Shown here: in pieces, positions 572-33,488 of the stretch
Numbering within the stretch: position 1 is the first letter of the stretch
How the letters are laid out: each line of letters opens with the position of its first letter
Assembly (NCBI GenBank): GCA_028695025.1
Contig: JAQVJV010000003.1
Span: 637-64,636, forward strand
DNA length: 64,000 nt
Direction: 5' to 3'
Source of the DNA: Candidatus Moraniibacteriota bacterium
GTDB taxonomy: Bacteria; Patescibacteriota; Minisyncoccia; Moranbacterales; UBA11712
Notes under the pieces: generated by a model
What the model saw: the letters and a program-made list of their open reading frames with translations, nothing else
What the model was told of the DNA's origin: nothing
Databases searched by the model: none
Made by a program: the position numbers and the translations under genes

Positions 572-901
<330 letters not shown>

Positions 902-2193: not shown

Positions 2194-2194
2194 A

Positions 2195-4237
2195 CTATTT
2201 GCCGAAGTTGCTCATCAATATTCCCAAGTCGCGAACCGTGCATTGCCCGTCGGAGTTGATGTCGCTCCGGGAATTGGTGAGAGCTGCGGCAAGTTTCAGA
2301 AAATCTGATTTAAGAATGTCAAGGTCTGTTGAATTAATTTTGTAATCTTGATTGAGATCTCCCGCGGAAAATGTACCTGCGGAACAATCCACAGCGCAAC
2401 TTGCTTCTGTTTCTCCACGACTGCTATCGCAAACATCATTCCCACAAAACATTGATTGCATAAGAGTTCGGTATTGAACCATGTCACTTGTCGGAAACTT
2501 TGCTTGGTCGGAAGATGGAATGAAATCATTATACCTATCCCAATCATATATCCAAACATATTCGTAATTATCGAAAAGTCTTTTGATTAGCGGCCTGAAA
2601 TCCTCCAGCGTGTAAACTTCAATTGGATAAACATAATCGCTTGAAGTATAGCCCGTAGAAAGGGCAAGAGAATGCGTTGCTCCCAGCTCGTAATTTGGAT
2701 ACTGCGAGAGATACGAGGCCACCGCCTTATCGCGTTCAGCCAATTGATAATCAAGGGAAAACAGCGAGGGATGGTAATAATGCACTTGTTCTCCACCATC
2801 AATGATTGTAAATGTATAGCCCTTTTCACTGGCTCGCTGAAGCATGCCTTTTATAATATTAGCATAGGAGAGATTTGTGTTATCCAGTTTTGAAAAAGCA
2901 AAAAGAATTTTCGCGTTTGGTAAAATATCGTTGGTTATATCGGCCATCCGCGACCCAATATTTGACAATTTGGAAATTACTTCATCCTTAGAAATACCCT
3001 TTTTACTGCCGATATAACCGACTGAATAAGCACAATCCTGGCCATAAGTTTCAGGATCAACCGAAATTCCGGAGGCACCTGTGCTCTTGCTTAAATTGAG
3101 TCCAAGCGAATACATCTTCAAAAAATCTTCCAACGCCTGATCTCCCGCATCAAGAGCGTAGTAAGAATTGCCGGCAATATACTTGTCAAACTCTGATATT
3201 GGATTGGTTGGCTGAGTATATTTACATCCGCAACTGAAAGTTGTGTCATAGCTTTCGTCACAATATCCCGCCAGCCGCGACATCCAGATCTTGGGCCATA
3301 TTTCTTTCGTTTGTCTATTTATAGCATCAATATTTGCCTGAAAACTTGAAATGTCTGCCGTGCGAAAAGTATCCCCGGAGAAAAGAGGCATTGTTACAAC
3401 ATCAAAAGGCGAGTTATCCAATTTATCCAACTCGCTGTATGTCATACCTTGATAGTGTGCATTTCCCGTCCAGAAAATAAGATTTTTAAGCTTCTGCTTG
3501 AATGACTCTTTTCCCGCATCAATTCTTATTTCATCGTCAGAAAGTTGTCGATTGTACATCTTGAGACCGGATAATCTGCCTTTGAAAAATTTCCCGGTTG
3601 TGTCGGTCGGGGAAAGCCCACCAAGAACAAGGCGGCCGCTATCGGTGAGAAAAGTGCTACCTCTTGGGATATACCCCGTACACACAATATTTCCATCGAC
3701 ATACAGCCGTATATATCTGGTGGGACTCAGCGTCATGGCAATCCGCGACCATTGTGAGGTGGGCAATGCGTAATCGCATGTAGTACCGCCCTTGTAGGTA
3801 GTTCCGTCTTCAGTATACGACACAGTAAAAACCAATTTCTTTTGATCATTTCTCCAATGAAGAGAGAGTCCGCTTTTAGAGATCAAATAATCAAAGACCG
3901 ATCCCGGTTGCGCTGAATTATCTTCGACGTATGCCCAAGTTGAGATAGCAAATGATCGCGAAGAAGAAAGATCAAGGCTGGATGAATCCGGAATTTCTAC
4001 GTAATCATTGCTCCCATCAAAAGACAAAGAGCTGCCGCCAGATGGACCACTTTCCCAAATTGACCCTTGAATCGTCCCGTCATTTCCATTCCCGCTCACA
4101 TCATGAAGAACCACCCCCGATCCCTCATGAAAATCCCAGTGGGCAACGAGGCCATCTTCTGCATGAGCGGCGGATATTTTCATGCCGAAAAAAAGTATGG
4201 CTACGACAATGATGGTTTTAGTTTTTTTACTGTTCAT
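2195..4237 (-). CDS. Secreted LamG-like (concanavalin A-like lectin, Laminin_G_3) protein with an uncharacterised central domain and a C-terminal type-I-like dockerin
   Basis: Signal peptide MNSKKTKTIIVVAILFFGMKISAAHA. The LamG_3 signature LVAHWDFHEGSG…DVSGNGNDGT is present. The C-terminus DLNQDYKINSTDLDILKSDFLK…DINSDGQCTVRDLGILMSNFGK is two dockerin Ca-binding repeats of the D.N.D…D pattern. Confidence 0.8.
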   Translation of the reverse strand: MNSKKTKTIIVVAILFFGMKISAAHAEDGLVAHWDFHEGSGVVLHDVSGNGNDGTIQGSIWESGPSGGSSLSFDGSNDYVEIPDSSSLDLSSSRSFAISTWAYVEDNSAQPGSVFDYLISKSGLSLHWRNDQKKLVFTVSYTEDGTTYKGGTTCDYALPTSQWSRIAMTLSPTRYIRLYVDGNIVCTGYIPRGSTFLTDSGRLVLGGLSPTDTTGKFFKGRLSGLKMYNRQLSDDEIRIDAGKESFKQKLKNLIFWTGNAHYQGMTYSELDKLDNSPFDVVTMPLFSGDTFRTADISSFQANIDAINRQTKEIWPKIWMSRLAGYCDESYDTTFSCGCKYTQPTNPISEFDKYIAGNSYYALDAGDQALEDFLKMYSLGLNLSKSTGASGISVDPETYGQDCAYSVGYIGSKKGISKDEVISKLSNIGSRMADITNDILPNAKILFAFSKLDNTNLSYANIIKGMLQRASEKGYTFTIIDGGEQVHYYHPSLFSLDYQLAERDKAVASYLSQYPNYELGATHSLALSTGYTSSDYVYPIEVYTLEDFRPLIKRLFDNYEYVWIYDWDRYNDFIPSSDQAKFPTSDMVQYRTLMQSMFCGNDVCDSSRGETEASCAVDCSAGTFSAGDLNQDYKINSTDLDILKSDFLKLAAALTNSRSDINSDGQCTVRDLGILMSNFGK

Positions 4238-4276
4238 TTTGTTTTTTATGCCATGTATTTTACATTTTATATGATT

Positions 4277-7200
4277 TTATTTCCCCCACCCACTCATGAG
4301 AATACCAAGGTCTTTCACTGTGCATTGGCCATCCTGGTTGATGTCGGAACGGGGGTTTCCTAGGTTCGCTGTTAGTTTCAGGAAATCGGATTTCAGGATA
4401 TCGAAGTCAGCTTGGTTGACTTGGGTGTCTTGGTTTATGTCAGCCGCTGTGTAGCCTTCCTTGGTAAGATATATCTGGTCAATGGCAGGATCAGGTGTCC
4501 AGTTGCCTTTTTCATCCTTGAACCATACATAGACCAGCTGGTTGCCTTTGGTGTTGTCGAGGGTCCAGTCTTTGGTATGGGAATAGGGATAAGTTTGGGC
4601 GTTTTGGAAATTATTAACGTTGGAGATTTTCATTTCGGTGACATCATGGGCATCGGTGGTTTCCATGGTGAGAGTGACTTGATTGTTATCAGTAAAATTG
4701 TAACCTTCGTTGATTCTTGCGATTCCAGCGGGAGGATCAGAGTCTTTTTGGGATAGGAAGTAGTAAGTAGTGGCACGAGATTGATCTTGCCAAGCGCCGG
4801 AGCTGTTTTTTCCAATTATTGATATTGTATGGGAATCATTGGAAAGGTTTGAAAGATTGATTTTGCTTGCTATAGGGGTTTCATTGCTCCAGGATCCTTC
4901 ATCCAGCTTGTATTTGTAGCTGGTGACATTGGTGCCTTGTGGAGTGAGGGCGAGGGAGCTATCTTCTATTACATCTTGAGGATAGTCGGAGATATATGCG
5001 ATTGGGTTCACTGTACTTTGAGCCTCCCAGGTGGCTGGGTTGGTTCCATAACCCGGATCGGTGCATTTCCATTCATGGGTTTGGCCGGAAATTGGGGTTT
5101 TTAATCTATATATGTCGTTTATGAGGCAATTAGTGGTTGAGGTAGGAGGATTGGCGCCGAGGATGAGACGGTTGCCTTGGTATGTGTTGCCCTCGACACC
5201 AGCTGTTGACCCCGTGCCGGTAGCAATCTTGTTGGCTGATTCATCCAGCTGTGTTTTTTGGTTGGAATAGGTGTTTTCGTTGGGAACAGTGATATTTTCC
5301 TTGAGGCCGGTAGTGGTGTTGCGTATGGTGGCGGGAACGGTGGTGTTTTTGTTTAGCAGAATTGTTCCATAGGCATCCTTGTAGATATTCCCCTGTTGAT
5401 TGACACGGCAAAAGGCTTTTTCGTAGTTCCAGTCAGATTCAGCAAGTCTGGTTTGATAGAGATTAATGAGAGATGTTTTTAGGTTGCTGGCTATTGTCGA
5501 GGAATTTACAAGATTAATGAGATCTTCCTGGAAAAATATTTCGTCCGAAGTCGGATTGGAAAAAAACTGTTCCCAGGAGTTATCCGCACCAAAGATGTTG
5601 GTGACATCGGCTTTCGGAACCCAAACAGCAATATCATAATTAACTGTTCCTCCATTGCAACGAAATACAGAGCCGTTTTTAAGGTTGAAATTGTTTAGAT
5701 TCCAGGTTATACCGCTGAAGGAGGTACTGGTACTGAAGAAATTATCAATCTTACCTTGTGCGTAACCGCCATTAATTGTCACACTATTATTGGCCTCTAG
5801 GTCGTTTGTGGATGTATTGATGCCATAGACCAGATCACTGTCATCAATCGTATCATCTGTCTTGAAGCGGCAATTGTTGAAAATAGCGCTTTTATTTTCC
5901 AGATTTTTAAAACATTTTCCGCCGATCCATTGACAATAGGGCGCATAATATATATTAAAAGTTCGATCTGCCTCGGTTGCTTCGTTTTGCTCTGAATAAA
6001 GAAACTCGGTATTATCAGCTGTGAAATCTTCGGTTGCTAAAATATTCGTATGGCTCGACTTTCCGACAATAATTTTCGAGTCTGTGAGAGATATTTTTCC
6101 TTGCCCAGAAAAAGAAAAGGGATAATTGCTAAATACTTTTTTAATATTAACAGTATTACCTTTTTCCGCACTGTAAGTGATATAACCGCCTTTCAAAAGA
6201 TTCATGTCCTCAAATGATATTTGTGAAGGTGCAATTTCCGGATGATCGCTTAGAGGTTCAGAGTGGACTCCTGTTTTATCTCTGTCTCCAATAGTTGTGA
6301 AATTCCTTACTTTGAGACGGTAGTTTCGCCATTTGTCCGAACCAAATTGAATAGCTCCTCGCCAGAGATTATGGCCGATTACATTATAGACTGTAACATC
6401 TGTATTAATGTAAGAACTTATACCGTCTGCAGTGTTATCTTTCAGGTAGCAGTCTTCGATATATACCCTTAACCTGCCTTGGGAGGTCGATTTTGCCGAA
6501 ATTGAAATCGAGGCATTGTGTTCAAGCTCATAACTTGTATACGGTCCTTGTTCCTGACTATTTCCATCGATAGTAAGGCCTCTTATAATTAAGGGTTTTG
6601 AATCTACGGTATTATTATAGCCATAATAACCATAAGTTCCGTTAAATGGCGTCACCATTGAAGATACCCAATTGCCCGACATCGGCGGAACCTTGAGCGT
6701 TGCTCCATAGCCTTCATAAGTCACGTTATCCCGAATACGGACGCTCTTAGCAATATACGTTCCCTCCGGAAACACTACTACTGCTCCTTTTCCCGTAGAT
6801 CCCCCTCCAGCCGTGTAGGCCGCATCGCAAGCTGCTTGAATGGCAGCAGTATCATCGGTTATTCCATCTCCTTTAGCATTGTAAGGAGAGTCTTTTACGC
6901 TTATGAGGGCGGCCCGATCATCATCAAGAATGGTATAGCTATGATTTGTATTGATTCCTAAATGAGCATTTTGGGGATTGGAGAGGGTAAGATTGAAGGT
7001 TTCATCAGTTTCATTGATGGTATCGTTAATGATGGTGATGTTTATGGTCTTTTCTGTTTCTCCGGGGTTGAAAGTGAGGGTGTTTTTTGCAAATTCATAG
7101 TCTTTTCCAGTTCCCTCGGAAAGGTAATACGCTGTTCCTCCAGAGGTTTGATAGTCCACTTTTGCTATTTGGGATGATGAAGCAGAAAGTTTAACTTTTA

Positions 7201-7360: not shown

Positions 7361-7592
7361 TCCAATATTTATATTATTTTAACAAAATTAATTTAAAATT
7401 CAAGTGCGTGGACTAAAATCGGGATACAATTAGAACTTATTCCAAAAATCGCTTTCGTGGCGAAAATCTTGAAAAATCTGCAGTGAGTATAGAATTTTTG
7501 AGATAATCCTCAACTTAGAACAATCGATTTACGGGCATTGAACATCCTGTATCGTTTCTCACCAAATACCGGCAATCGGAGTTTTCCGATGG

Positions 7593-13577: not shown

Positions 13578-13617
13578 ACCAAAAAAATTGGGCTTTTGCC
13601 TTTCTTGGATTATATCA

Positions 13618-15310: not shown

Positions 15311-15425
15311 TTTTTTATTTTTAAGGTTATAAAAGAAATTATAAAAAAAACCTTGTTGCAGATATCTTCTCCCGGCAGGAATGATTTTTTTTCTCTTCGG
15401 ATCCATATTCTGTTTTAAATTATTT

Positions 15426-15917
15426 TTATTTTTTCTCTCCTGCGATGAAATCAACTTCTTCTTCCCGAAATTTTCCGACCAGACCCAACACGTCCGCCTT
15501 GCTGACTATCCCAAGCAACTTTTTGTTTTCATCCACGACGGGAATAGGGTTGACTTTTTTTTCCTGGATAAGCCTGATAAGGTTGGTCACCTTTTCATCC
15601 GGCCGGATCGTGACCGCGTCAATCGACATTATGGAGGAAGCGTCAGCCGATAAGATCTCTTTCAAATTACCAGCTTTCTCCGGGAAATACTTGGAAATTT
15701 TAAGATCTTCCAAAATTTTTATGAGCGACGGGATATGCAATTTCTCAAAATCCCGGGTAAGAAAGTCGTTTTCAGTTATCATCCCGACCAATGCGCCGTC
15801 CTCAACCACGGGAATTCCGCGAAAATTATGATCAATCATCATCTTCGCCACTTCACTGATTTTCGTTTTTGGATCGACCGAAACCACCTCCTTGGTCATT
15901 ATGTCTTCTACTTTCAT
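15426..15917 (-). CDS. CBS-domain pair protein
   Basis: Two CBS modules (…EVVSVDPKTKISEVAKMMIDHNFRGIPVVEDGALVGMITENDFL… and …IMSIDAVTIRPDEKVTNLIRLIQEKKVNPIPVVDENKKLLGIVSKADVL…). Confidence 0.8.
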   Translation of the reverse strand: MKVEDIMTKEVVSVDPKTKISEVAKMMIDHNFRGIPVVEDGALVGMITENDFLTRDFEKLHIPSLIKILEDLKISKYFPEKAGNLKEILSADASSIMSIDAVTIRPDEKVTNLIRLIQEKKVNPIPVVDENKKLLGIVSKADVLGLVGKFREEEVDFIAGEKK

Positions 15918-28200: not shown

Positions 28201-29447
28201 AAGCGGACATCGTATTCTCCGTTGGTGAGTTCCTTGTTCTGGCTGTCCATCAAGTAGGCGGATATTTCGATGTCACCCGGATGCGCTTCAAGGATTTGAT
28301 CGCCGGTTTCGGCCGCTAAGACCAAACCTTTATTGTTTTCCTGTCCACTGCCGCCGGAAGTTTCAGATAATTCATTCACAGCCTCAACTCCCGCGACTTG
28401 TCCCTTGTCCTCTTCATTACTGCCGGTAAGACGCAAACCTGACTTCTCTTCAAACTCTTGTACTTTCTGATGGCGGAACGCATCCTTCGCAAGTTCCGCG
28501 AACTTGTCGGCGCCTACTTTCAGCTGATCCACATTTTCTGCGACCTGGCTTCCCGCAAAACCAGCGACTTTGGAAAGCGCATCCACCCCGCGGTTATATG
28601 AAGCGTAAATTTTTTTCTCGCCCAGGTTTTCCCAATAGGCGAGATCCTTTGAAGTTATGTTACCGACTGCCATCAAAACGACCAGTAAGATGAAAGCCAA
28701 AGCCGGTTTCAAATTGTTGGATGAAAATTCCCGCAGGCTCGCCGACTCGATTTTTTTTCTCAAATCGAACTTCCTGATATTGATCTTATTGGGTTCCCCG
28801 ATCTTGGAAAGTTTAGAAAAACTTTTCTTGATCCCGGCCAGCGCTCCCGCGGACAACCGGCGCAACTCTTCCCAAACAATATCACCTTGAACTTCGCCCC
28901 GGTTTTCGGAAACGGTTTTTTCAATTTCAGCCGGTCCGGAAACAACGCTTCCTTTCTTTTCCGCCTCATCCGTTTTTGCGATTTTGGCGGCGGGCGCTTC
29001 CTTGGGAGAGTTGAGGGAAATGGAATCGCTTTTCAAGAATTCTCTCAACTCCGCTTTTCTTGCCTCGACTTCATCAACCGCGGCTTCCGGAATGGAAATT
29101 TCTTTTGCCGAAATTTTTTCTTCTTTCTTCTCCGCCGCACCTTCTTTTCCGCCGAGTTCTTTCGAAAGCCTTTCTTTGTATTTTTTCTTTTTTTCCTGGG
29201 ACGCTTTTGTGAACTCATTAAGCCATTCTTCGGTCGTATGCCATACGCCTTTTATTTTCTCCGCCTTGAGTTTCCCCTGCCGCGCGGAAAAGTTTATGTA
29301 GTTTTTCGAGTACGCTGAAGTCTTCGCGATTTCAGATAGCGGGATAAAATTCGTCTCTTGTCCGTCTTTTTCAGAAAGCAAAAAACGGCCCTTTTCGGAA
29401 GCGTTTTTGGAATTGATTTTCGGTTTTTTTGTTTCTGTCTTTTTCAT
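19299..29447 (-). CDS. 3382-aa membrane-anchored giant tail-fibre-like protein: cytoplasmic HTH_17 (excisionase-family) N-terminus, single TM, phage-tail-fibre repeat arrays, C-terminal Peptidase_S74 intramolecular chaperone domain and coiled coil
   Basis: The N-terminus FIPLSEIAKTSAYSKNYINFSARQGKLKAEKIKGVWHTTEEWLNEF fits the HTH_17 consensus (…GeL.a.kiGgrWri…). A TM helix follows at LKPALAFILLVVLMAVGN. The extracellular part has dozens of NGTNVGIGTT(S/N)P…L.V.G repeats plus a block of 20-aa NTTGYNNTALGxxSLYS repeats (Phage_fiber_2-like). The C-terminal SDVRMKKDIESMDSALDKVMALDPVTFHMK…HAGFIAQDVEKISPELV matches the S74 autoproteolytic chaperone, followed by a Q-rich coiled coil. Confidence 0.85.
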   Translation of the reverse strand: MKKTETKKPKINSKNASEKGRFLLSEKDGQETNFIPLSEIAKTSAYSKNYINFSARQGKLKAEKIKGVWHTTEEWLNEFTKASQEKKKKYKERLSKELGGKEGAAEKKEEKISAKEISIPEAAVDEVEARKAELREFLKSDSISLNSPKEAPAAKIAKTDEAEKKGSVVSGPAEIEKTVSENRGEVQGDIVWEELRRLSAGALAGIKKSFSKLSKIGEPNKINIRKFDLRKKIESASLREFSSNNLKPALAFILLVVLMAVGNITSKDLAYWENLGEKKIYASYNRGVDALSKVAGFAGSQVAENVDQLKVGADKFAELAKDAFRHQKVQEFEEKSGLRLTGSNEEDKGQVAGVEAVNELSETSGGSGQENNKGLVLAAETGDQILEAHPGDIEISAYLMDSQNKELTNGEYDVRFSIYTADRTESDPYPSDTDAGTRIWEETRKVAVENGLLDVYLGEANPLPNLNFAAENYFVGIRVGEDAEMIPRKRIGAVPLARTAMNIAGQTIGNAAGSIPLSNGILNVNLNAELLGGHKASYFQAAGNYQAAGDYDNYVSWKLQTSATDAGVQIKTKKGAIFEGADGIATSRNLNTLTISPVYGSSNNTVAEGSTPIVVNTAGNLTGGGTGTAGGGISLTLNTVASPTFTDITANGNININSSNNLIFGGTTSLGEATSAIDSGAYMVGAFTGGFTNSSSANVQEVLADLDTAISSGGPGTIWSLAGGAIFPTDGTNGLAVGTANQFQVTNAGAVTAATYNGVTLSGNGTIVTGSGSYTFTLAGNASISGANTGDQNLWATINSQSGNTTANSTTDTLTINGGGIATTAISGDTLTITATEADTLATVTGRGASTTNQLSFNYNSGAPFTVLNSTEITNLNANYLQGHDASYFQTALTNPVTGTGTNGYVAVWNGTNSITSQQYLNVSQGGTGAGTFSSNYLLKGNGTSAISSSVIYDNGTNVGIGTTSVGTYKLNVNGTGNFTALTISGSTVSADTAQAYVSSALSTGLLKVTTGTGALSTATAGTDYVAGGTGSQYQVSYFSGQGIITGSDNFYFNGTNVGIGTTGVGTYRVNVNGSLNATGYYAGGTAGASQTTGGLTFTNGLYTAGTLATGLPANGSITGQTLYWNGSAWTANANLFNDGTNVGIGTTNPSQKLDVAGNVRIGGSANIISNLTVGGNGEFTGNITAANFTGSSSGANTGDQNLWATINSQSGNTTANSTTDTLTINGGGIATTAISGDTLTITATEADTLATVTGRGASTTNQLSFNYNSGAPFTVLNSTEITNLNANYLQGHDASYFQTALTNPVTGTGTNGYVAVWNGTNSITSQQYLNVSQGGTGAGTFSSNYLLKGNGTSAISSSVIYDNGTNVGIGTTSVGTYKLNVNGTGNFTALTISGSTVSADTAQAYVSSALSTGLLKVTTGTGALSTATAGTDYVAGGTGSQYQVSYFSGQGIITGSDNFYFNGTNVGIGTTSPNTKLDVFGVHITGIGVARFKATNASTYVTIDTTGTGGESTLRFKTNGTDKGAVGYLDSTGNVAIYNAAATPDPIEWLSVNVASGNVGIGTSSPSERLHVYDGNIAIDSVADQGLVFKDNGANEWHMNRYDSNNSFNIVESGVSERLTILSGGSVGIGTTNPLALLSVGATSQFQVNSSGNVTGGTYNGNTITTGTGTLTLGSNTLSVGTSGTAAVGTGLANYVTRWTGTNTISSGVIYDNGTNVGIGSASPSAKLFVNGDLLVQSANGRIWGISGLTSGHTVNFQYGGDSYNKIETTYGSNAIFRSFHGLQFTGGSSNTEVARIGMDYGGINSYFRGNVGIGTTNPNYKLEVNGGMYATTYNGVTLSGSGTINTGSYTLTIPATGTAALGTGTQNYLARWTDANTLSIGSIYDNGTNVGIGTTSVGTYKLNVNGSLNAASYYMNGTALALTTAGTYTGQTLYWNNSTTQWTPTGNLFNNGTNVGIGTTSPTGLFQVGIGATTPFFVSATTGNVGIGTTSPSSLFEVRGDTAAVLNVTRGGNVGIGNTNPTHIFDTRGSVSDYIGYFYNSSTNAAAAGLYVRSDGTGNLLTLNYAGTDLLTVSSSQAIFNVPTTFNSMGDVSMAYDFYMTNTTAGYIKFNGPGYIQTESASENLNLYLSAANSGYVILNDSAQSQTITPMTNDTYDLGSNSYRFANLWLGGDTIHLGASAAAETWMSYDATNSRFNLGVGATGGAPVVTVNSSGNVGIGTTNPTSKFVIGADVFTVSSSGNVTGGTYNGNTITTGTGTLTLGSNTLSVGTSGTAVVGTGLANYVARWNGTNTLSTGSIYDNGTNVGIGTTAIGTYRLNVNGTINATNLSIGGTSVAITQAGTYTGQTLYWNNSTTQWTPTGNLFNNGTNVGIGTTSPTALLTMQSTSSYESAPLSSELLSAGDTWGTTNWTGDFASGFTHTTGYTDALTDTTVVPTTNYLYQISYTVTGRTAGTFTISFGSESKGGLYSTGTWGPKATGTGTLSITPTSDFNGTIVISIKRITGTYSPTYVLNDSTGTSALEIRSSTASLANTFIGRYGGRYNTTGYNNTALGYQSLYCNTTGYSNTALGTYSLYCNTTGYNNTALGVNSLYSNTTGYNNTALGYQSLYSNTTGYSNTSLGTSSLYSNTTGYQNVALGVNSLYSNTTGYYNTALGVNSLQYNTTGYNNTALGVNSLYSNTTGYNNTALGYYSGRYISGGGNNQTSYSSLYLGYDTRALADGDTNEIVIGASAIGAGSNSVTLGNTSITKTILQGNVGIGTTNPQRLLHVNGTSRFDSYLLLNSGETNSGLIGSSDLIGTTGGASDDVTLRSASDIYFRVSNSAALGAMIQATSGNVGIGTTTPGAKLYVNDNSVDISSASRFLTVSDLKTSGTLTGDHYAVSFRANATNYSNQNGHALNLWALDGVVTNPAGYTATSITGVRGYVIGTHTSGTVNNAYGVVGNIEQQGSGGTISDARALYARVSATGTVTNSYGLYIDSIGGTNTWGVYQYSSSNKNYFAGNVGIGTTAPGYKLEVYTGTATGYVVTSDGTWGSTSDVRMKKDIESMDSALDKVMALDPVTFHMKSEDSSDPLHAGFIAQDVEKISPELVSTNASGYKGLSYAMFTPMLTKAIQEQQAMINEQGSTISDQQLQIESQSTSVAELQTAVNDKLNIVGTAISDQQLQISTLQSQLADAETRLTESENNLLAFETSVNDTLGAMIETEKTLTARVFDHEDRIKDLEDKLATMTVTAGGEIPENIVTTDEDGNVKLAGLFEAKVVQAEKVKADETVAGAYSVKNDEDAPTVGDGTVLSVKKDDDNDGWDDITKVDGKSARVETAAVTETAKIFVSFEGDPGSRYWIEKIRDAETGRLTGEFSVNVLEAIAQDIKFSWFIVEEK
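21365..21835. repeat. Tandem 60-bp repeat, ~8 copies, encoding 20-aa Phage_fiber_2-like units (NTTGYNNTALGxxSLYS)
   Basis: Seen in the sequence: units of TCCCAGGGCGGTGTTATTGTATCCGGTGGTGTTGGAGTAGAGGGAATTCAC with minor variation. It lies inside the giant gene, is in frame, and has no spacers. Confidence 0.8.
25036..25880. repeat. Copy 1 of a ~845-bp perfect direct repeat inside the giant gene (period 1227 bp)
   Basis: Identical nucleotide blocks at 25036..25880 and 26263..27107. Encoded peptides in the ORF track, including antisense ones, are identical (for example 25122..25379 equals 26349..26606). Confidence 0.8.
26263..27107. repeat. Copy 2 of the ~845-bp perfect direct repeat inside the giant gene
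   Basis: See copy 1. On the minus strand both copies encode GANTGDQNLWATINSQSGNTTANSTTDTLTINGGGIATTAISGDTLTITATEADTLATVTGRGASTTNQLSFNYNSGAPFTVLNSTEITNLNANYLQGHDASYFQ…. Confidence 0.8.
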
Positions 29448-29747
29448 CCCTTGTTAATTCCCTTTTTTATCAGATTTAACCGCTGTATTTATTGGAAAAA
29501 TCGCCTTTTTCTTTTTTATTTTTATTCCCCAGTTTTTTGCGGCTGTTATTTGCTTTATATAAGAGATATAACACTTTATATAATAATTATATTTTTACTA
29601 AAAAATGGCGCAAATGATTTCGCAAAAAGACAGCCTCTTTTTTTAATACAAACCAATTTAGTGAAATTAGCGTATTTGGTTATTGTTTTTCTGGAAAATT
29701 ATTTCTTATTTTTATAAAATTTTAATAATATTTACTTAAGTAAAATA

Positions 29748-29795
29748 AAAACCGATATTTATTTTATATCGATCTTTTTCAAAAATATCGGTTTT
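29748..29795 (-). terminator. Perfect 13-bp inverted repeat (AAAACCGATATTT … AAATATCGGTTTT) flanked by A/T runs, between the ABC operon and the giant gene; candidate terminator or operator
   Basis: Seen in the sequence. The stem is AT-rich, so stability is modest, and it sits in a ~590-bp AT-rich region upstream of the giant gene. Confidence 0.3.
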
Positions 29796-29960
29796 TATTA
29801 AAACACTACTTATCGGATTTCTTATATTTTATTTTATTTATAATTTCGGAGAAACAACCCATCTGATATTTCTATAAAAAATTATTTGCTACAAAAAAAT
29901 TTTGTCAAATCGCCTCAAAAAAATTCGCCGGGAAATATAGTTATCCACAGTTAATTTCAG

Positions 29961-30033
29961 CGAACAGTGAAGAAAGATCGATGAACAATATTTCGCGATT
30001 GATCACTGTTCGCTGATCATTGTTCATCGATCG
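29961..30033 (-). promoter_or_regulatory. Two interleaved perfect inverted repeats immediately 3' of the 216-aa gene stop (CGAACAGTGA/TCACTGTTCG and GATCGATGAACAAT/ATTGTTCATCGATC)
   Basis: Seen in the sequence. The arms are arranged A1-B1-A2-B2, so the hairpins are mutually exclusive or form a pseudoknot. They abut the stop at 30034, and no clean U-tract follows. Confidence 0.3.
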
Positions 30034-30684
30034 TTATCTCTTCGCCCAGCCGAACATCTGGCCGAAAGCGTCGCTCAAAAGATCGAAGATGGAAACGTTC
30101 GGCGCTCCGGTATAGAAAGCGAGCTTTCCGGATTCCGCAAAATTCCCCCATTTGTCTTTTGCGTTCACGACATATGAGTAGGAAGTGCTGTAATTCAATT
30201 TGGTTATTTCGGCGCTATGCACGAATCCATAACCGTCTTCGGAAATTATTTTTCCCTCCGTCTGCCCTTCGCGCATATACTCGATCGAAGAGAGGCACGG
30301 CTTGTTGGTCGTCCAGCTCAAAAGGAACCGGACTTCTTCATCTGTTTTGGTCATCAAAAGTTCTGAGCGCAAATCTTCGATTTCGGGAGCGAGCGACTGC
30401 TGGCCTGACGGAACCGTAATGGCCGCTCCTCCGAAATTGATGTGCGGCGTCCGGAAGTTTTCACTTGAAAAAGAATTTGTCGCATTTTGATTCTCCTCTT
30501 CGCCCAAGACGGATCCGCTCGGACTTTGCTCGTTTGAAATACTGGCCGTTTCCACGTTCGTTTTCTTCTCAATATATTTTGAATAAAGGTACGGAGAAAA
30601 ATATCCGAGTGAAAATATGATCGTGGCCAGGAGCGCGTATTTTGAAAATTTTTTTAATTTCATAAATCCTGAATTATAAATCAA
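30034..30684 (-). CDS. Membrane-anchored small secreted protein with a purple-acid-phosphatase-N-terminal-like (FN3) domain
   Basis: N-terminal anchor KYALLATIIFSLGYF. The C-terminal VRFLLSWTTNKPCLSSIEYMREGQTEGKI…HSAEITKLNYSTSYSYVV resembles the Pur_ac_phosph_N beta-sandwich. The start may be the internal Met (MKLKKF…). Confidence 0.6.
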   Translation of the reverse strand: MIYNSGFMKLKKFSKYALLATIIFSLGYFSPYLYSKYIEKKTNVETASISNEQSPSGSVLGEEENQNATNSFSSENFRTPHINFGGAAITVPSGQQSLAPEIEDLRSELLMTKTDEEVRFLLSWTTNKPCLSSIEYMREGQTEGKIISEDGYGFVHSAEITKLNYSTSYSYVVNAKDKWGNFAESGKLAFYTGAPNVSIFDLLSDAFGQMFGWAKR

Positions 30685-30686
30685 AT

Positions 30687-31865
30687 TTATCGCGAGCTCA
30701 AAGCCTCAAGCGGATCAAGCGAACTCGCCCGTTTGGCCGGACCGATCCCGGTCGCGAACCCGATCACGATCGAGAACAGCAGGATGAATCCCAAAAACCA
30801 CAAAGGATAAGCAAAGAGATCCATCGGCTTCCCGCCGAAATATTTGGCCGCCAGATTGACGATTATATTCACCGCCTGCCCCGACAAAAATCCAAAAAAC
30901 AAACCGGCCAGCCCGCCGCAAAGGCCCATGAGCGTTGATTCAATCACGAATAGAGAAAGAATATCCGTTTTCGAAGCGCCGATTGAGCGCATGATCCCGA
31001 TCTCATTTGTCCTTTCAAGAAGAGTGACCGTCATCGTGTTGAACATTCCGATCGCGGAAACGGCAAGAGTGATGATTCCGAACAAGCCCAGAATGATATT
31101 CACAACACGGAAAAGCTTGTTTACCTCCGCCACCGTTTCCGAAAGGGATGAAACCGTGAAGCCTATTCCGGAAATTTTTTCTTTCACGGAATCCATCACC
31201 TCGCTCGATCGGCATCCCACCTTCGCTTTGGCATACTGCAAACCGCCGGGGAGGTTTAGGTTATCCGGAAGGACGTAGAAAATCGTGTCCTCCCCTTCAA
31301 CAACTCCCGCTATTGCAAAATCAGGCTCATCGATATTGGAACTGCCCTTCCCAGCCGGGGAAAGCAGCGTGAAAGATATCTTCTGGCCGGCCAATTCTTC
31401 CGGATTTTTTCCAAGCGTTTTCCCGATGGCCGCAGTCACCAAAATTTCCTTGGAACTGCTTTTGCCAAGCATTTCTCCTGAAAACACTTTGAGCCCCTCA
31501 AGATTGAGATACCCGAGGGTCGCCACCTCCGCCCGCGAATCAAGGCTTGTATCGCCCAGCGACATCCGCGAATTGAAATTGAAGCTGGTCTCCACGCCGG
31601 AGACGCCTTCTATTTTTTTCATTTCATCAATAGCTTGGCCCGTCAAAAAAATTGCGTCCTGCTCGTTGGGAGAAACGTCAAGCGAGGTGAGCGCCCCGGA
31701 AGCAGTGATTGTCTCAAGAAGGGCGTCCTGGAGGCCGTACCCGAGCGAAACCAAAAACAGGATCGCGCCAAATCCGATCCCCATACCTAAAACCGTGAGG
31801 ATGGTCCTCCCTCTTCGGGCCGTGAACATGCGGGTGGAAAGTTTGAGTATATCGCGGGCAGTCAT
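30687..31865 (-). CDS. ABC transporter permease, MacB/FtsX family, with a large extracytoplasmic domain
   Basis: TM1 is followed by a ~200-aa periplasmic domain and then three C-terminal TMs of the FtsX pattern (…ERTNEIGIMRSIGASKTDILSLFVIESTLMGLCGGLAGL…). It lies immediately downstream of the ATPase gene. Confidence 0.8.
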   Translation of the reverse strand: MTARDILKLSTRMFTARRGRTILTVLGMGIGFGAILFLVSLGYGLQDALLETITASGALTSLDVSPNEQDAIFLTGQAIDEMKKIEGVSGVETSFNFNSRMSLGDTSLDSRAEVATLGYLNLEGLKVFSGEMLGKSSSKEILVTAAIGKTLGKNPEELAGQKISFTLLSPAGKGSSNIDEPDFAIAGVVEGEDTIFYVLPDNLNLPGGLQYAKAKVGCRSSEVMDSVKEKISGIGFTVSSLSETVAEVNKLFRVVNIILGLFGIITLAVSAIGMFNTMTVTLLERTNEIGIMRSIGASKTDILSLFVIESTLMGLCGGLAGLFFGFLSGQAVNIIVNLAAKYFGGKPMDLFAYPLWFLGFILLFSIVIGFATGIGPAKRASSLDPLEALSSR

Positions 31866-31880
31866 AGAAAAGTTTAAAAA

Positions 31881-33488
31881 TTACATAGAATATCTCGCCA
31901 GCATGATGATCTCCATCTCCCGCGCCACTTTCACCGCCGTGCGCCGGTCAAGCCCCACCCCGCCTTTCATGACCGGTCGGTCGGCAAGATCAAGGAATTC
32001 ATCCATATTAAGCTCGTTCATGAGGCGCATCTTTACATATTCCACGAATTTCGTCTTTTCCATATCTTCCATTCTCAACTTGAATTTTTCAATCAGATAA
32101 TCGGAAATATCCTTCGTCGATATTTCAATATTCCCGAAATCAATTTTTTTTACCTGATCGAAAATTTCCCGCACGCCTTCGACCAGTTTTTTAGCCTGAT
32201 ACTTGTCCCACCCCGCTCCGCCCTTTTCCTCTGATTCAGCAAGCCTTTTTTCCAAATCTTCTGCGGTTATTCCTCCTGCGATATAATCCTGAAAAATCTT
32301 TTTAGCTTCATTCAGCTGGGCGTCAGGAATATGGAAAAAGACATGGGAAAATATTTGCTGGGCCTTGAAAGGAATGAGCAATGTCCCGAGCTGGTCCGGC
32401 GTCAGATTGCGAAATGATTGCATAAGGGCCAACAGTTCCGGAGCAATTTTTTCTTTGCGCCGCTCTCCCAGCTCGCTTTTTTTCACCAGCTCGTATTCTC
32501 CGCCCAATTCCCAGTCTTCTCCCAATTTCCCTTCCTTGAAAGCTTTCCAGGCCTTGGCAAGTTCGTCCTTTTTCACCAATTCCCATTCCTGATCGAGCTG
32601 TCCTTTCTGATGAAGCTCCCAGGCTTTGCCCAATGTCCCTTTCTTGAAAGCCGCCCATTCTTCATCCATTTTCTGTTTTTCCTTGAGATATTTTTCGTCT
32701 ATTTCCACTCCCGGCTTCTTTTTGTCCATGACCTCGACCACTTTGGTAACTTTTCCGTCCTGCATATGTATCACCTTGTCGCCGTATTCCAGATGAGTCG
32801 GATCATGGGTTACCAGAATGACCAATTTTTTATCCACTTCGTTGAGTTCCTTGAGGATGGTAAGCACGTTATACGTCGCTTTGGAATCCAGGTTTCCCAC
32901 CGGCTCGTCGGCAACGATTATGGCCGGGCTGTTGATGAGCGACCGCGCAATAGCCACCCTTTGCCTTTGCCCGCCGGAAAGGTCGGCCGGAAACTTTTCG
33001 CCTTGCGCTTCGATCCCGAATCTTTTGAGGAGATTCAAAGCGTCTTTTTTTCTGGTCTCGGGATCATCATTGACAAAAGCCCGTGGAAGACAAACGTTAT
33101 CGGCTATCGACAGTGTGGGAACCAGATAGAACGATTGGAAAATCATACCGACTTTGCGCCGATGATATTCCAGCTTGTCCTTTTCCGTGAAGGCCGATAT
33201 GTCCCGGCCGTCAACCTCCACTTTTCCGCTTGTCGGCGGAAGCAGCCCGGAAATGACGTTGAGAAGCGTGGACTTCCCGCAACCGGAAGGCCCGAAAAGG
33301 ATCACGTATTCATGGGGATAAAATTCAAGGTTGATATTCTCCAGGGTATGCGCTTCATTCAATTTTCCCCGATTGAAAATAATATTCAGGTTTTCGATTT
33401 TGATAAGGGGCTTCAATGTTTCATTCATGACTATTAGTATATCATAAAAATTATTTTTACCGGAAAAGAAAAACAAAAAAAATCCCAT
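31881..33488 (-). CDS. ABC transporter ATP-binding protein (MacB/LolD-like) with a ~280-aa non-canonical C-terminal extension containing Trp-centred 12-aa repeats
   Basis: Walker A GPSGCGKST; ABC signature LSGGQRQRVAIARSL; Walker B IIVADEPVGNLD; H-loop VTHD. After about aa 255 the sequence is repeats LGKAWELHQKG / QLDQEWELVKKD / ELAKAWKAFKEG / KLGEDWELGGEY followed by an uncharacterised helical domain. Confidence 0.8.
   Translation of the reverse strand: MGFFLFFFSGKNNFYDILIVMNETLKPLIKIENLNIIFNRGKLNEAHTLENINLEFYPHEYVILFGPSGCGKSTLLNVISGLLPPTSGKVEVDGRDISAFTEKDKLEYHRRKVGMIFQSFYLVPTLSIADNVCLPRAFVNDDPETRKKDALNLLKRFGIEAQGEKFPADLSGGQRQRVAIARSLINSPAIIVADEPVGNLDSKATYNVLTILKELNEVDKKLVILVTHDPTHLEYGDKVIHMQDGKVTKVVEVMDKKKPGVEIDEKYLKEKQKMDEEWAAFKKGTLGKAWELHQKGQLDQEWELVKKDELAKAWKAFKEGKLGEDWELGGEYELVKKSELGERRKEKIAPELLALMQSFRNLTPDQLGTLLIPFKAQQIFSHVFFHIPDAQLNEAKKIFQDYIAGGITAEDLEKRLAESEEKGGAGWDKYQAKKLVEGVREIFDQVKKIDFGNIEISTKDISDYLIEKFKLRMEDMEKTKFVEYVKMRLMNELNMDEFLDLADRPVMKGGVGLDRRTAVKVAREMEIIMLARYSM

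Follow-up and report, generated by a model that had tools for sequence, protein, structure and literature searches.

A predicted membrane-anchored cohesin and two dockerin proteins in a surface-protein gene cluster of a Candidatus Moraniibacteriota bacterium

What kind of surface does a CPR bacterium build from a run of neighbouring genes for very large exported proteins, and how are these proteins held on the cell? We addressed this question in a window of 64 kb, the whole stretch of DNA that was analysed. The reading that we favour, with a probability of roughly 0.6, is a chromosomal cell-surface cluster with at least two display systems, one of the cohesin-dockerin type and one of directly anchored proteins, that would bind glycans, likely on a partner cell.

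The gene block and its origin

2195-33488, minus strand: the island, eleven ORFs
Left flank: ATP synthase operon; right flank: TatD, MetRS and others (housekeeping)
2153..2194, minus strand: perfect 17-bp hairpin directly 3' of the p680 stop codon; beyond it, left of the island, an AtpZ-like ORF and then atpB
7593-7967, plus strand: 124-aa ORF, IS5-family transposase remnant, inside the block

The eleven ORFs of the preliminary description were all found on the minus strand with their coordinates unchanged, and surface proteins take up about 27 kb of the island. The flanks are housekeeping genes, as had been described, which supports a distinct same-strand cluster of genes for extracytoplasmic proteins between housekeeping operons. 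Its left end is marked by the hairpin at 2153..2194 (fold -32.9 kcal/mol, z -6.9). The CBS-pair protein had been taken for the sole non-surface gene; the CBS assignment was confirmed, but the transposase remnant also lies inside the block. Independent same-strain Logan contigs confirmed contiguity from M16 through residue 793 of the giant protein (L001) and from the C-terminus of p971 through p680 (L166/L167), the middle of the giant gene, the N-terminal part of p971 and the p680/atp junction lying outside this check.

Every surface protein of the island carries a Sec-type signal or anchor. The p680, p1027 and p971 proteins have cleavable signal peptides, and p1818, p577 and p3382 each carry a signal-anchor TM helix towards the N-terminus. 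Domains were accepted when a Pfam match passed the gathering threshold. Nearly all earlier domain calls hold on this basis; those of FN3/PAP_N, of p577 as Ig-like only and of a tail fibre over the whole length of p3382 were corrected. The FN3/PAP_N matches of p577 (26.8 bits) and p216 (24.2 bits) are under the Pfam cutoff of 30.

It is conceivable that the block was acquired horizontally as an island, or that it is a degenerate prophage or tailocin with tail-fibre and tailspike-like genes. The GC fraction climbs to 0.50-0.55 within it, the transposase remnant is present, an S74 domain of phage type occurs in the giant protein, and the beta-helix proteins share their fold class with phage depolymerases. 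However, GC3 of the island genes (0.41-0.62) matches the flank range (0.39-0.61), and the GC rise sits at codon position 2 and therefore reflects amino-acid composition; nothing in the codon composition of the island points to horizontal transfer. Genes for an integrase, tRNA, capsid, terminase, tail tube or baseplate were not found, and p3382 has no PHROG match outside its S74 part. The proximal island, which is the part covered by the comparison with close relatives since their contigs all end within the giant gene, before p971-p680, is syntenic in them at 51-73% protein identity. We therefore regard such an origin as highly improbable.

A cohesin and two dockerins

2195..4237, minus strand: p680 (680 aa); signal peptide, LamG (aa 74-237), a domain of about 350 aa, Cys-rich linker, type I dockerin
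2198-2365, minus strand: dockerin of p680 (aa 625-680), Dockerin_1 29 bits against a cutoff of 22.9
4277..7360, minus strand: p1027 (1027 aa); signal peptide, Calx-beta, beta-helix, unassigned region, Ig-like modules, type I dockerin
4280-4444, minus strand: dockerin of p1027 (aa 973-1027)
13721..15454, minus strand: p577 (577 aa); basic cytoplasmic tail, TM helix 92-110, predicted cohesin, three FN3-like modules
14645-15067, minus strand: predicted cohesin module of p577 (about aa 130-270)
15426..15917, minus strand: cytoplasmic CBS-pair protein (CBS 108 bits), directly upstream of the cohesin gene

The p577 protein had been described as a set of Ig-like repeats. Repeat modules are present, namely three FN3-like modules of about 100 aa with Cys pairs, but a cohesin N-terminal to them had been overlooked, as its homologues, an AF2 model and Foldseek indicate. 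An exhaustive HMMER search yielded 206 homologues of p577, and the Pfam Cohesin family (PF00963) is matched by 62/87 p577 homologues. Ten homologues were checked, and in eight of them the cohesin match lies above the 24.1-bit cutoff and overlaps with the region aligned to p577; one of these eight, P0037, is 50% identical to p577. Because p577 itself reached no score against Pfam Cohesin, and because the E-values of a profile search against PDB were marginal (0.01-0.13, with cellulosomal cohesins as five of the six best matches), the assignment by sequence is transitive. The AF2 model of the module (pLDDT 88.2) has nine strands. Cohesins make up all of its best 50 Foldseek matches in PDB (E 2e-7 to 3e-5), with target-normalised TM-scores of up to 0.71 in a range of only 0.5-0.7, and this modelled fold is consistent with a cohesin. 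Taken together, homology and modelling identify p577 as a putative N-terminally membrane-anchored cohesin that was previously unrecognised. The preliminary description had proposed to look for a cohesin partner of the dockerins in the genome; p577 places such a gene inside the island itself. The gap between the CBS-pair gene and p577 is 19 nt with the ATG start of p577 at 15406, and the two overlap by 29 nt when the longer form starting at TTG is considered.

The LamG domain and dockerin of p680, and the Calx-beta, pectate-lyase-type fold and dockerin of p1027, pass Pfam gathering thresholds, in agreement with the earlier assignments. LamG of p680 is lectin-like (Laminin_G_3 76.8 bits), and searches with its middle domain of about 350 aa gave no match. 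In p1027, the right-handed beta-helix is RHGA/pectate-lyase-like (Pect-lyase_RHGA_epim). The two dockerins are 69% identical and each has two DxNxDxxxxxxD loops; the calcium loops of p680 are DLNQDYKINSTD and DINSDGQCTVRD. The genes are separated by 39 nt, so co-transcription is likely. Dockerins occur on two of the three proteins with signal peptides and on none of the three TM-anchored proteins. Since p680 and p1027 have no anchor other than their C-terminal dockerins, docking to the cohesin of p577 probably keeps them on the cell.

The window contains exactly one cohesin and two dockerins. Adjacent dockerin genes were found in 7 of 12 other cohesin loci, which are 11 census loci (the window and the own-strain contig L166 excluded) and L172. 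In L168, one cohesin lies amid four Dockerin_1 genes, one of which encodes a DUF2341-dockerin protein, and L170 and L172 have the same pattern; L141 has the order dockerin, CBS, cohesin, cohesin, so that CBS precedes a cohesin there as well. A cohesin beside dockerin genes is thus a recurring arrangement in other CPR loci, although these metagenomic matches are at the level of modules, not of orthologues. This recurrence and the anchored cohesin of the island strengthen the earlier idea of assembly through dockerin-cohesin contacts.

It may be argued that these genes are neighbours without assembly, a loose pile-up of fast-evolving surface genes in which the cohesin-like module and the dockerins do not bind each other. 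Dockerin-like modules might be calcium-binding stabilising or sorting tags, or partners of cohesins encoded elsewhere. Cohesin and dockerin modules outside cellulosomes are common and for the most part uncharacterised, modules of the LamG, FN3-like and dockerin types turn up in many shuffled combinations at metagenomic loci, Pfam Cohesin was reached through homologues of p577, and our view covers 64 kb of the genome. Nevertheless, dockerin genes flanking cohesins in 7 of 12 loci are hard to explain without functional pairing, and the island dockerins sit exactly on the proteins that lack another anchor. We consider a lack of assembly quite unlikely. Binding of the dockerins to p577 is our preferred reading; partner specificity is not readable from sequence, and the dockerins could instead have a partner other than p577, either a cohesin encoded elsewhere in the genome or a quite different molecule. 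The stoichiometry of one cohesin for two dockerins counts against our preferred reading.

Directly anchored proteins and the ABC/FtsX pair

8121..13577, minus strand: p1818 (1818 aa); basic N-terminal tail, TM helix 69-87 (type II anchor), DUF2341, 6-7 LamG modules
16033..18948, minus strand: p971 (971 aa); signal peptide, polysaccharide-lyase-like beta-helix N-terminus, Ig-like modules, CHB_HEX_C_1
19299..29447, minus strand: p3382 (3382 aa); cytoplasmic N-domain, TM helix 243-261, rod of about 2780 aa, S74, coiled-coil
About 20058-20333, minus strand: S74 intramolecular chaperone domain of p3382, starting at S3039 (Peptidase_S74 60 bits)
29448..30033, minus strand: spacer separating the giant gene from p216, with elements that five relatives conserve (alignment, fold, sequence)
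29752-29791, minus strand: conserved terminator-like hairpin ending the ABC-FtsX-p216 unit
29613-29586, minus strand: sigma70-type giant-gene promoter; -35 TTGCGC (29613-29608), 16-nt spacer, -10 TATAAT (29591-29586)
30034..30684, minus strand: p216 (216 aa); signal-anchor, one FN3-like module, conserved C-terminal tail
30687..31865, minus strand: MacB/FtsX-type (type VII ABC) permease; MacB_PCD, FtsX, four TM helices
31881..33488, minus strand: ABC ATPase; ABC_tran, 285-aa C-terminal all-alpha extension

The description of p1818 as DUF2341 plus LamG repeats agrees with Pfam (Laminin_G_3 382.8 bits over six stretches; DUF2341 above threshold). The hydrophobicity score of its TM helix is 2.63, and the LamG domain of p680 aligns with seven segments of p1818. 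The beta-helix reported for p971 has weak evidence, a match to the rhamnogalacturonan lyase 5olq (E 9e-7 over 80 aa) and a choice_anch_Q score of 29.3 bits against a cutoff of 25. This protein has neither a dockerin nor an anchor, and ends in an Ig-like domain after CHB_HEX_C_1. Its Ig-like modules are duplicated, with an exact 297-nt duplication (16840-17136 = 17407-17703).

The cytoplasmic N-domain of p3382 is Lys-rich and 242 aa long. Its rod of about 2780 aa is rich in Thr, Gly, Ser and Asn, and has seven YadA-head-like 17-aa repeats and at least 20 copies of the motif NVGIGT, 13 of them in the full form NVGIGTTxP; the gene contains an exact 837-nt duplication (25033-25869 = 26260-27096). 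In the S74 domain the Ser/Lys dyad is intact, and SDVRMK stands opposite SDRRIK in an alignment with the phage S16 fibre (6f45). A typical S74 domain is terminal and of about 150 aa, whereas 344 aa remain here to the C-terminus, including a 225-aa coiled-coil plus terminal domain after S74. Phage matches, to T5-like and Thermus phage tail fibres at 28-37% identity, are limited to about aa 2952-3158; the label tail-fibre-like holds for this part and not for the rest of the protein. From its sequence, p3382 may trimerise and be cleaved.

The earlier assignment of an FtsX/MacB permease and an ABC ATPase with an extension is borne out by Pfam (MacB_PCD, FtsX, ABC_tran). The permease has an extracytoplasmic MacB_PCD domain of about 210 aa, and its 513 relatives are nearly all from Moraniibacteriota or Parcubacteria MAGs, in line with a Moraniibacteriota-like CPR genome as the source of the window. 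In the ATPase extension, the distal 190 aa or so are conserved in Moranbacteria and Falkowbacteria, and a Trp-rich repeat insert of about 95 aa is found in the close clade only; the AF2 model (pLDDT 74, above 88 over the last 150 aa) gave no fold match.

The p216 gene starts 2 nt past the FtsX stop codon, and its FN3-like module shows homology to the repeats of p577 (E 3e-16 to 8e-11).

The pair had been regarded as an exporter dedicated to the island, that is, a secretion or assembly machine for its giants. Several observations agree with this. The p216 gene adjoins ABC/FtsX in 16 other loci, and of 80 loci, 16 small-protein and 2 large-protein ones have p216-type modules beside the pair. The order ABC-FtsX-p216-giant is kept in the closest clade (L007-L010 and L013), in part also in L011 (ABC-FtsX-p216, then the contig end) and L016 (FtsX-p216-giant), and in L021 p216 stays beside the giant gene though moved away from FtsX. 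Through this conserved synteny, p216 links the giant gene with the ABC pair. However, more than 500 Moranbacteria-type genomes have the pair, in most cases with no giant gene close by, and its neighbours include a type IV pilus cluster, ParAB, RND pumps and aminoacyl-tRNA synthetases; it is a core Moranbacteria gene pair that occurs in varied surroundings. Between p216 and the giant gene lie a conserved terminator and a conserved promoter (giant-gene 5'UTR about 130 nt), which indicates that the giant gene is transcribed separately from the pair. Each of the six large proteins carries a Sec signal peptide or a signal anchor. Type VII ABC systems act by passing force to partners outside the cytoplasm; they do not translocate polypeptides, and we know of no MacB-type transporter that exports giant proteins across the cytoplasmic membrane. 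The dedicated exporter was thus rejected, and such a role of the pair is distinctly improbable.

What the island may do

In the first display system, a minimal cohesin-dockerin one, the signal-anchor of p577 would insert in the membrane and present one cohesin near it, followed by the three FN3-like modules. The LamG lectin p680 and p1027, with its Calx-beta and beta-helix, would be exported by Sec, lose their signal peptides and dock through their near-identical calcium-binding dockerins to this cohesin, which would keep both on the cell; the cytoplasmic CBS-pair protein is co-encoded with the anchor. The second system would be the directly anchored LamG array p1818 and giant fibre p3382, whose phage-tail-fibre-type S74 domain is expected to drive folding and probably trimerisation, with predicted autocleavage before S3039. 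The p971 protein would be a secreted beta-helix protein. ABC-FtsX may be a lineage-wide MacB/FtsX-type envelope machine with p216 as its accessory; in the closest clade, synteny ties both p216 and the giant fibre gene to it. Together, the surface proteins would bind, and possibly cut, glycans of an external surface; these targets are predicted from the domains, and for a CPR cell, the envelope or EPS of a partner cell is the most likely such surface.

Polysaccharide degradation is the job of classical cohesin-dockerin systems, so the anchored cohesin might hold glycan binders and cleavers in a cellulosome-like feeding apparatus that harvests sugars from free pectin-like polymers, EPS or chitin-like material, rather than serve host attachment. 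The beta-helices of p1027 and p971 resemble pectate lyase, rhamnogalacturonase or RG-lyase, CHB_HEX_C_1 is present in p971, and LamG/ConA-like folds are typical carbohydrate-binding modules. The domains fit a nutritional and an attachment role equally well. However, no recognisable CAZyme catalytic family reaches its threshold, all equivalog scores being far under cutoff, and known feeding cellulosomes have no 3382-aa membrane-anchored fibre or 1818-aa lectin array. In a saccharibacterium, a genetically tractable CPR bacterium, Tn-seq found a dockerin-domain, a VCBS and an FN3 protein essential for epibiotic growth (PMC10633639). By this analogy a role of the island in host attachment is plausible, and a feeding apparatus seems unlikely.

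In conclusion, the putative membrane-anchored cohesin beside two dockerin proteins provides a bench-testable model for how CPR bacteria arm their surface.

Cohesin and dockerin modules of the block

The eleven open reading frames (ORFs) that the preliminary description had assigned to the block were all found where it had placed them, on the minus strand. Pfam domains exceed the gathering thresholds in p680, p1027 and p1818 (island proteins are named by their length in amino acids), the CBS ORF, p971, p3382, the permease and the ATPase; the FN3/PAP_N calls in p577 and p216 score below threshold. The ORF at 7515-7988 (157 aa, minus strand) looks spurious by domain and export-signal checks.

Features of the block, with their Pfam families
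2195-4237, minus strand: p680, Laminin_G_3 and Dockerin_1
4277-7360, minus strand: p1027, Calx-beta, Pect-lyase_RHGA_epim and Dockerin_1
8121-13577, minus strand: p1818, DUF2341 and six Laminin_G_3
15426-15917, minus strand: CBS-pair protein, CBS pair
16033-18948, minus strand: p971, CHB_HEX_C_1/Fn3_assoc
19299-29447, minus strand: p3382, the giant fibre, Peptidase_S74 at aa 3039-3093
30687-31865, minus strand: permease, MacB_PCD and FtsX
31881-33488, minus strand: ATPase, ABC_tran

The N-terminal domain of p577 had no match in direct Pfam, NCBIfam and PDB-sequence searches, and a k-mer-indexed homologue search with the segment between its transmembrane (TM) helix and its three FN3-like repeats (aa ~111-285) returned one relative only. 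An exhaustive HMMER search of 1.84 billion representatives was needed; it yielded 206 homologues, of which 55 have E ≤ 1e-10. The Pfam family Cohesin (PF00963) is matched by 62 of the 87 scanned homologues and not by p577 itself; this divergent cohesin family thus escapes Pfam when the p577 protein itself is searched. For eight of ten individually inspected homologues, the match to cohesin scores above the cutoff of 24.1 bits and falls on the segment that aligns with p577; among these eight are P0037, a homologue 50% identical to p577, and several proteins of about 170 aa that consist of a TM helix and the cohesin domain alone. Some homologues carry cohesin and dockerin in a single chain. When a profile of the domain was compared with the PDB, five of the six best matches were cellulosomal cohesins (5aoz, 5m2o, 5m2s, 1g1k and 2vn5), at marginal E values of 0.01-0.13. 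The AlphaFold2 model of the domain, built from 39 homologues (pLDDT 88.2, pTM 0.78), has nine strands in the flattened beta-sandwich (jelly-roll) of the cohesin fold. In a Foldseek search of the PDB with this model, the 50 best matches were cohesins without exception (types I, II and III; probability 1.00, E values 2e-7 to 3e-5), and they include SdbA (2bm3), OlpA (3ul4) and OlpC (4dh2). Since homologues match PF00963, the profile matches cohesins of the PDB and Foldseek places the model among cohesins, we regard p577, at the level of fold and, through its homologues, of family, as a membrane-anchored cohesin. The assembly by dockerin-cohesin contacts that had been proposed is strengthened by this putative partner inside the block.

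p680 and p1027 each end in a dockerin, with 69% identity between the two modules. They score 29.0 and 26.0 bits, respectively, for PF00404 (cutoff 22.9). Each has two canonical Ca-binding loops (DLNQDYKINSTD and DINSDGQCTVRD in p680, DINQDTQVNQAD and DINQDGQCTVKD in p1027) followed by helices, and lies at the C-terminus of a protein with a signal peptide. Such a profile score, two loop-helix repeats and a secreted protein are the features of type I dockerins. The 64-kb window holds one cohesin and two dockerins; a multi-cohesin scaffoldin with many dockerin-bearing CAZymes, as in a cellulosome, was not found within these 64 kb, and no CAZyme equivalog of NCBIfam reaches its threshold. The middle domain of p680 and the middle region of p1027 have no Pfam or PDB match. 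The two genes are separated by 39 nt and are probably co-transcribed. Fimbrial identity with TafC, the haloarchaeal Tat-fimbriae subunit (PMC11821415; NF052521), was considered for p1818 and p680 and rejected: p1818 scores 187.6 bits summed over five LamG repeats and p680 scores 33 bits, below the full-length threshold of 410, so that the likeness does not extend beyond the LamG domain.

Cleavable classical signal peptides are found in p680, p1027 and p971, and signal-anchors, composed of a basic N-tail and one strong hydrophobic helix, in p1818 (TM 69-87), p577 (TM 92-110) and p3382 (TM 243-261). Therefore, Sec-dependent export is sufficient for all six large proteins. Of the three secreted proteins without a membrane anchor, two carry dockerins.

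For a census of such neighbourhoods, a cohesin HMM built from A2, the alignment of p577 cohesin-domain homologues, and an iterated dockerin profile were run over all fetched loci (Lnnn, metagenome or genome loci). It covers twelve cohesin loci: eleven, excluding the window and the own-strain contig L166, plus L172. Dockerin genes are immediately adjacent to the cohesin in seven of the twelve (L105, L139, L141, L149, L163, L168 and L170). No dockerin was detected in the other five; four of these are short contigs or have the cohesin at the contig end, and in the fifth, L171 (10.9 kb), the cohesin lies in the middle of the contig. According to precomputed Pfam annotations, L168 has the order Dockerin, Cohesin+PKD, CarboxypepD_reg, DUF2341+Dockerin, Dockerin, SecA, and L170 and L172 repeat this cohesin/dockerin theme. 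Small PAP_N/FN3-like proteins adjoin the cohesins of L171 and L172. In L141 a dockerin-ending ORF is followed by a CBS gene, a cohesin protein and a second cohesin protein. The order of CBS then cohesin is thus shared by the window (13721-15917) and L141 (Ga0315286_10055637, 2-4073), with identities of 40% and 28%, which hints that the CBS sensor module may be functionally tied to the cytoplasmic tail of the cohesin anchor. In the metagenome scan with p577, matches to the FN3-like repeats dominated and no close orthologues were found, hence the distal boundary of the block is without comparison. A literature search, with subscription journals outside its scope, found no description of a cohesin-dockerin neighbourhood in the candidate phyla radiation (CPR).

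The giant fibre, the ABC-FtsX pair and p216

p3382 begins with a 242-aa Lys-rich cytoplasmic domain and one TM helix, followed by a Thr/Gly/Ser/Asn-rich rod of about 2780 aa. The rod holds at least 20 copies of 'NVGIGT', 13 of them in the full form NVGIGTTxP, and seven 17-aa repeats 'NTALGxxSLxxNTTGY'. Peptidase_S74 (PF13884) is matched with 60 bits (cutoff 22), and the Ser/Lys(+5) catalytic dyad of this family is present as S3039 and K3044 in SDVRMK, aligned to SDRRIK of the phage S16 fibre (6f45). The S74 domain lies 344 aa before the C-terminus; no matches were found for the 225-aa coiled-coil and terminal domain that comes after it. The N-terminal domain and aa 241-816 have no Pfam or PDB match. 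Likeness to phage proteins is limited to aa ~2952-3158, which are 28-37% identical to T5-like and Thermus phage fibres; the S74 region matches a single PHROG, the tail fibre family phrog_33119 (E 9e-12). In relatives the first ~600 aa are 45-51% identical and the S74 region ~38%, and the middle varies in length and sequence, as it does in phage fibres. A diversity-generating retroelement was rejected as a source of variation: mismatches between divergent repeats of the giant gene are not biased towards adenine, and a reverse transcriptase is lacking.

The permease scores 68.1 bits for FtsX (cutoff 25.5) and 45.5 bits for MacB_PCD (cutoff 27), with TM helices at about 19-37, 248-266, 302-340 and 348-366, and the adjacent ATPase scores 123.6 bits for ABC_tran. 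An FtsX domain, MacB_PCD between TM1 and TM2, four TM helices and a cognate ATPase place the pair among type VII ABC systems. It falls in none of the named subfamilies (MacB, LolCDE, FtsEX, each with its partner); every NCBIfam equivalog score falls well short of its cutoff, for instance 82 against 966 for MacB, 192 against 308 for LolD and 174 against 265 for FtsE. No MFP or PG hydrolase gene adjoins the pair, the nearest HlyD being 25 kb off and paired with AcrB. At least 513 relatives of the permease were confirmed, out of at least 598 pattern matches, among species-representative genomes (best identity 73%), and nearly all of the relatives listed are labelled Candidatus Moraniibacteriota or Parcubacteria. 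The all-alpha C-terminal extension of the ATPase is conserved in 33 proteins, from Moraniibacteriota or Falkowbacteria wherever the source is labelled, and its model has no fold match.

The pair is invariant across 80 loci and its neighbours vary widely; they include a type IV pilus cluster (on a Falkowbacteria contig), ParAB, HlyD-AcrB and leucyl-tRNA synthetase. In L002/L003 (Falkowbacteria, 11379-19761) the homologous pair is directly followed by a PilC-like T2SSF protein, an N_methyl pilin-like protein of 624-679 aa and PilM. An HlyD-like protein (~375 aa) and an AcrB-type RND protein (~1120 aa) are encoded at most a few kb downstream of the pair in many Moranbacteria (L004, L023, L036, L040, L048, L053, L054, L071, L077 and L080). 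In the window, the HlyD-AcrB pair lies at 58642-63231, 25 kb from the ABC-FtsX pair and on the opposite strand. Such a pump, an RND protein combined with a membrane-fusion protein, stands out in a CPR cell that presumably has a single membrane.

The closest relatives share the order aaRS-NIF3-M16-AI2E-p156-methylase-MetRS-TatD-ABC-FtsX-p216-giant. Its upstream part is seen in L009, L011 and L013, and ABC-FtsX-p216-giant in L007-L010 and L013; the L011 contig stops after p216. The p216 family follows FtsX in 14 other loci and precedes the ABC gene in two more, and in L021 p216 adjoins a giant gene though it lies 4.8 kb from FtsX. The ectodomain of p216 is homologous to the three repeats of p577. 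A p216-type module also forms the C-terminal part of large proteins encoded directly upstream of the ABC gene in L041 (2708-8551) and L085 (3-3479), in which eight tandem FN3-like modules are followed by the p216 C-terminal tail.

The spacer between p216 and the giant gene (586 nt, 29448-30033, read in minus strand sense) contains blocks that are invariant in L007-L010 and L013. In comparative alignment they comprise a perfect DnaA-box sequence (TTATCCACA, 29941-29949, just after the p216 stop), a TTGACA box (29908-29903), AAATCCGAT, a terminator-like hairpin with a T-run (CCGATATTT...AAATATCGG), a promoter (TTGCGC-16 nt-TATAAT) and a leader of ~130 nt. The conserved hairpin and promoter argue against an operonic or export link between the ABC unit and the giant gene. 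A small RNA or attenuator may lie between the first of these boxes and the hairpin. A generic promoter/terminator scan gave no enrichment over shuffles, the comparative alignment alone being informative, and an Rfam search of the spacer gave nothing credible. A replication origin at the DnaA box was rejected, as the box is single and the window shows no enrichment (17 observed, 12.8 expected). At 29958-30031 inverted repeats interleave as A, B, A', B' (pairing segments: ATCGATGAACAAT with ATTGTTCATCGAT, CAGCGAACAGTGA with TCACTGTTCGCTG), a pseudoknot-like or alternative-hairpin arrangement that is specific to the window, is absent from the spacers of relatives and has Rfam matches at noise level only.

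The preliminary description had included a MacB-type ABC exporter in the block. To read the neighbouring pair as a dedicated exporter of the block proteins is tempting, but this is unsupported and is corrected here, because the pair occurs with many different neighbours, a terminator and a promoter lie in the spacer, and the Sec signals are sufficient. We conclude that this pair, with its FN3-like accessory protein, is an envelope machine common to the lineage and not the exporter of the block. p216 and the fibre gene are tied by synteny.

Assembly and origin of the locus

Most of the layout is confirmed by two independent short-read contigs from the same strain. The Logan contig L001 extends from the M16 peptidase into the giant gene as far as aa 793, and L166/L167 cover the last 278 aa of p971, then CBS, p577, p1818, p1027 and p680. 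There are exact in-frame duplications of 837 nt in the giant gene (25033-25869 = 26260-27096) and of 297 nt in p971 (16840-17136 = 17407-17703), and independent Logan contigs break off ~28-30 nt into both. A de Bruijn graph is expected to break off like this where a sequence is truly repeated, so these intragenic repeats are real; their copy number is not independently fixed. In all six close relatives the contigs stop inside or just before the giant gene. The giant-gene locus is systematically broken in metagenome-assembled genomes (MAGs). Since giant repeat-bearing genes break short-read assemblies here, such islands are under-represented in MAGs. On the 3' side of p680, an unusually strong, perfect 17-bp hairpin without a T-run lies at 2153-2194 (-32.9 kcal/mol, z -6.9); a Logan contig stops ~30 nt past the p680 stop, and the p680/atp junction rests on the window assembly.

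The flanks are housekeeping genes: an AtpZ-like ORF and atpB on the left, and TatD, MetRS, a SAM-methylase, an M16 peptidase, aminoacyl-tRNA synthetases, TGT, RecO and others on the right. A 645-aa DUF11 protein (45555-47492), probably another surface protein, is encoded among the housekeeping genes outside the block and has no dockerin or cohesin.

A horizontally acquired island would be one explanation of the block, which has a raised GC content and a trace of a transposase. The rise in GC is due to codon position 2, and GC3, at 0.41-0.62, does not depart from the values of the flanking genes. The transposase trace is a 124-aa ORF (7593-7967, plus strand) within the 760-nt p1027-p1818 gap, matching the C-terminal end of IS5-family/DDE_Tnp_1_6 transposases at E values of 1e-3 and 5e-3 in two libraries, both below cutoff; by this likeness it is probably a decayed IS fragment. 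Apart from this weak opposite-strand remnant, genes of mobility or phage type are absent, no tRNA was found in the window, and Rfam gave nothing at gathering threshold there. A prophage or tailocin is suggested by the S74 segment of p3382; the block has no phage Pfam families and no capsid, terminase, tail tube, sheath or baseplate genes, and its PHROG matches are limited to that segment and to the LamG of p680, which matches families without a known function. The proximal part of the block is syntenic in relatives, a comparison that stops where their contigs end in the giant gene. In composition, gene content and proximal synteny, the block is native and not a recent import.

Comparison with known systems and proposed function

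The best-supported reading is a surface-display cluster with cohesin-retained, directly anchored and free secreted components. A single membrane-anchored cohesin (p577) would retain the dockerin-tagged lectin p680 and the dockerin-tagged beta-helix protein p1027; two giants, the LamG array of p1818 and the fibre p3382 with its predicted S74 maturation, would be anchored directly, and the beta-helix protein p971 would be secreted free. Ca-dependent binding between cohesin and dockerins is predicted for the block, with gene adjacency in other loci as indirect support.

Among the closest known arrangements is that of the anchoring scaffoldins of Clostridium thermocellum (SdbA, OlpA/OlpC, with type I/II dockerins), in which a cell-bound nine-stranded cohesin is likewise combined with secreted proteins ending in a dockerin of ~60 aa, composed of two Ca-binding loop-helix repeats. 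The present system differs from the cellulosome in having a single cohesin instead of a multi-cohesin scaffoldin, and an N-terminal TM helix instead of SLH domains or sortase. The cohesin is membrane-proximal and the FN3-like modules are distal. The predicted cargo comprises a LamG lectin and an unclassified beta-helix protein instead of recognised cellulases, and the organism is a CPR bacterium with a reduced genome. Cohesin-dockerin contacts outside the cellulose context are known from glycoside-hydrolase toxin complexes of Clostridium perfringens and from a pair of Archaeoglobus fulgidus, where the modules are on soluble secreted enzymes that bind each other. Shared with these pairs would be the assembly, by such contacts, of glycan-binding or -cleaving proteins that act on surface glycans of another organism; here one partner sits in the membrane as an integral anchor, and the genes lie in a cluster with giant fibres.

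p3382 shares with phage fibres and tailspikes (endosialidase endoNF, the T5 L-shaped fibre pb1, S16 gp37) an S74 domain with Ser-x4-Lys after a repetitive Gly/Thr/Asn-rich rod. Unlike them, it is chromosomal, N-terminally membrane-anchored with a 242-aa cytoplasmic domain and about 3 to 10 times longer, it extends past S74 by the coiled-coil and terminal domain, and no other phage genes are nearby. The ABC-FtsX pair resembles MacAB, LolCDE and FtsEX in its separate NBD and 4-TM FtsX-domain permease with a large MacB_PCD extracytoplasmic domain, but has a lineage-specific all-alpha NBD extension and, as recurrent neighbour, a small FN3-like single-pass protein.

In the saccharibacterium Southlakia epibionticum, a dockerin protein is described as essential for epibiotic growth (Wang et al. 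2023, PMC10633639), and giant surface genes, with giant dockerin-bearing proteins, are described in Omnitrophota (bioRxiv 10.1101/2023.11.21.568195). As the cited passages present them, both are ultra-small host-dependent bacteria whose proteins are proposed to target glycans of partner cells. They share with the block proteins with dockerin, lectin-like and FN3 domains, or giant extracellular proteins; those passages make no mention of a cohesin partner, a cohesin-dockerin neighbourhood or an S74-type fibre. The present lineage, in contrast, belongs to Moranbacteria. Judging by its domains, the cluster would bind, and possibly cleave, external glycans. By analogy with Saccharibacteria (PMC10633639), a partner cell is favoured as the target over a free polysaccharide; either would fit the domains. 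The host attachment that had been proposed is plausible on this analogy.

A wider picture, which we consider rather unlikely, is that CPR bacteria generally use a stripped-down, membrane-anchored cohesin-dockerin 'socket-and-plug' to load interchangeable lectins and depolymerases on their surface for attachment to or attack on partner cells. A CBS sensor coupled to the cytoplasmic tail of the anchor would gate display by energy/nucleotide state, and the lineage-specific MacB-type ABC, with its unique ATPase extension and p216, would mechanically anchor, tension or release the S74-matured fibre, as a new fibre-handling apparatus.

How ultra-small CPR bacteria, of which almost none are culturable, hold and exploit other cells is a long-standing question. 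Cohesin-dockerin is a known kind of interaction; what appears to be new here, from the sequences and the model, is the putative display system of a CPR bacterium that is non-cellulosomal and built on one TM-anchored cohesin. The central claim concerns three short recombinant modules, one cohesin and two dockerins, and can be tested in vitro without cultivation. If the modules bind with Ca2+, cohesin-dockerin neighbourhoods in other CPR loci would be readable as surface-display cassettes, and their LamG, DUF2341 and beta-helix cargo would become candidate host-recognition and host-wall-cutting factors.
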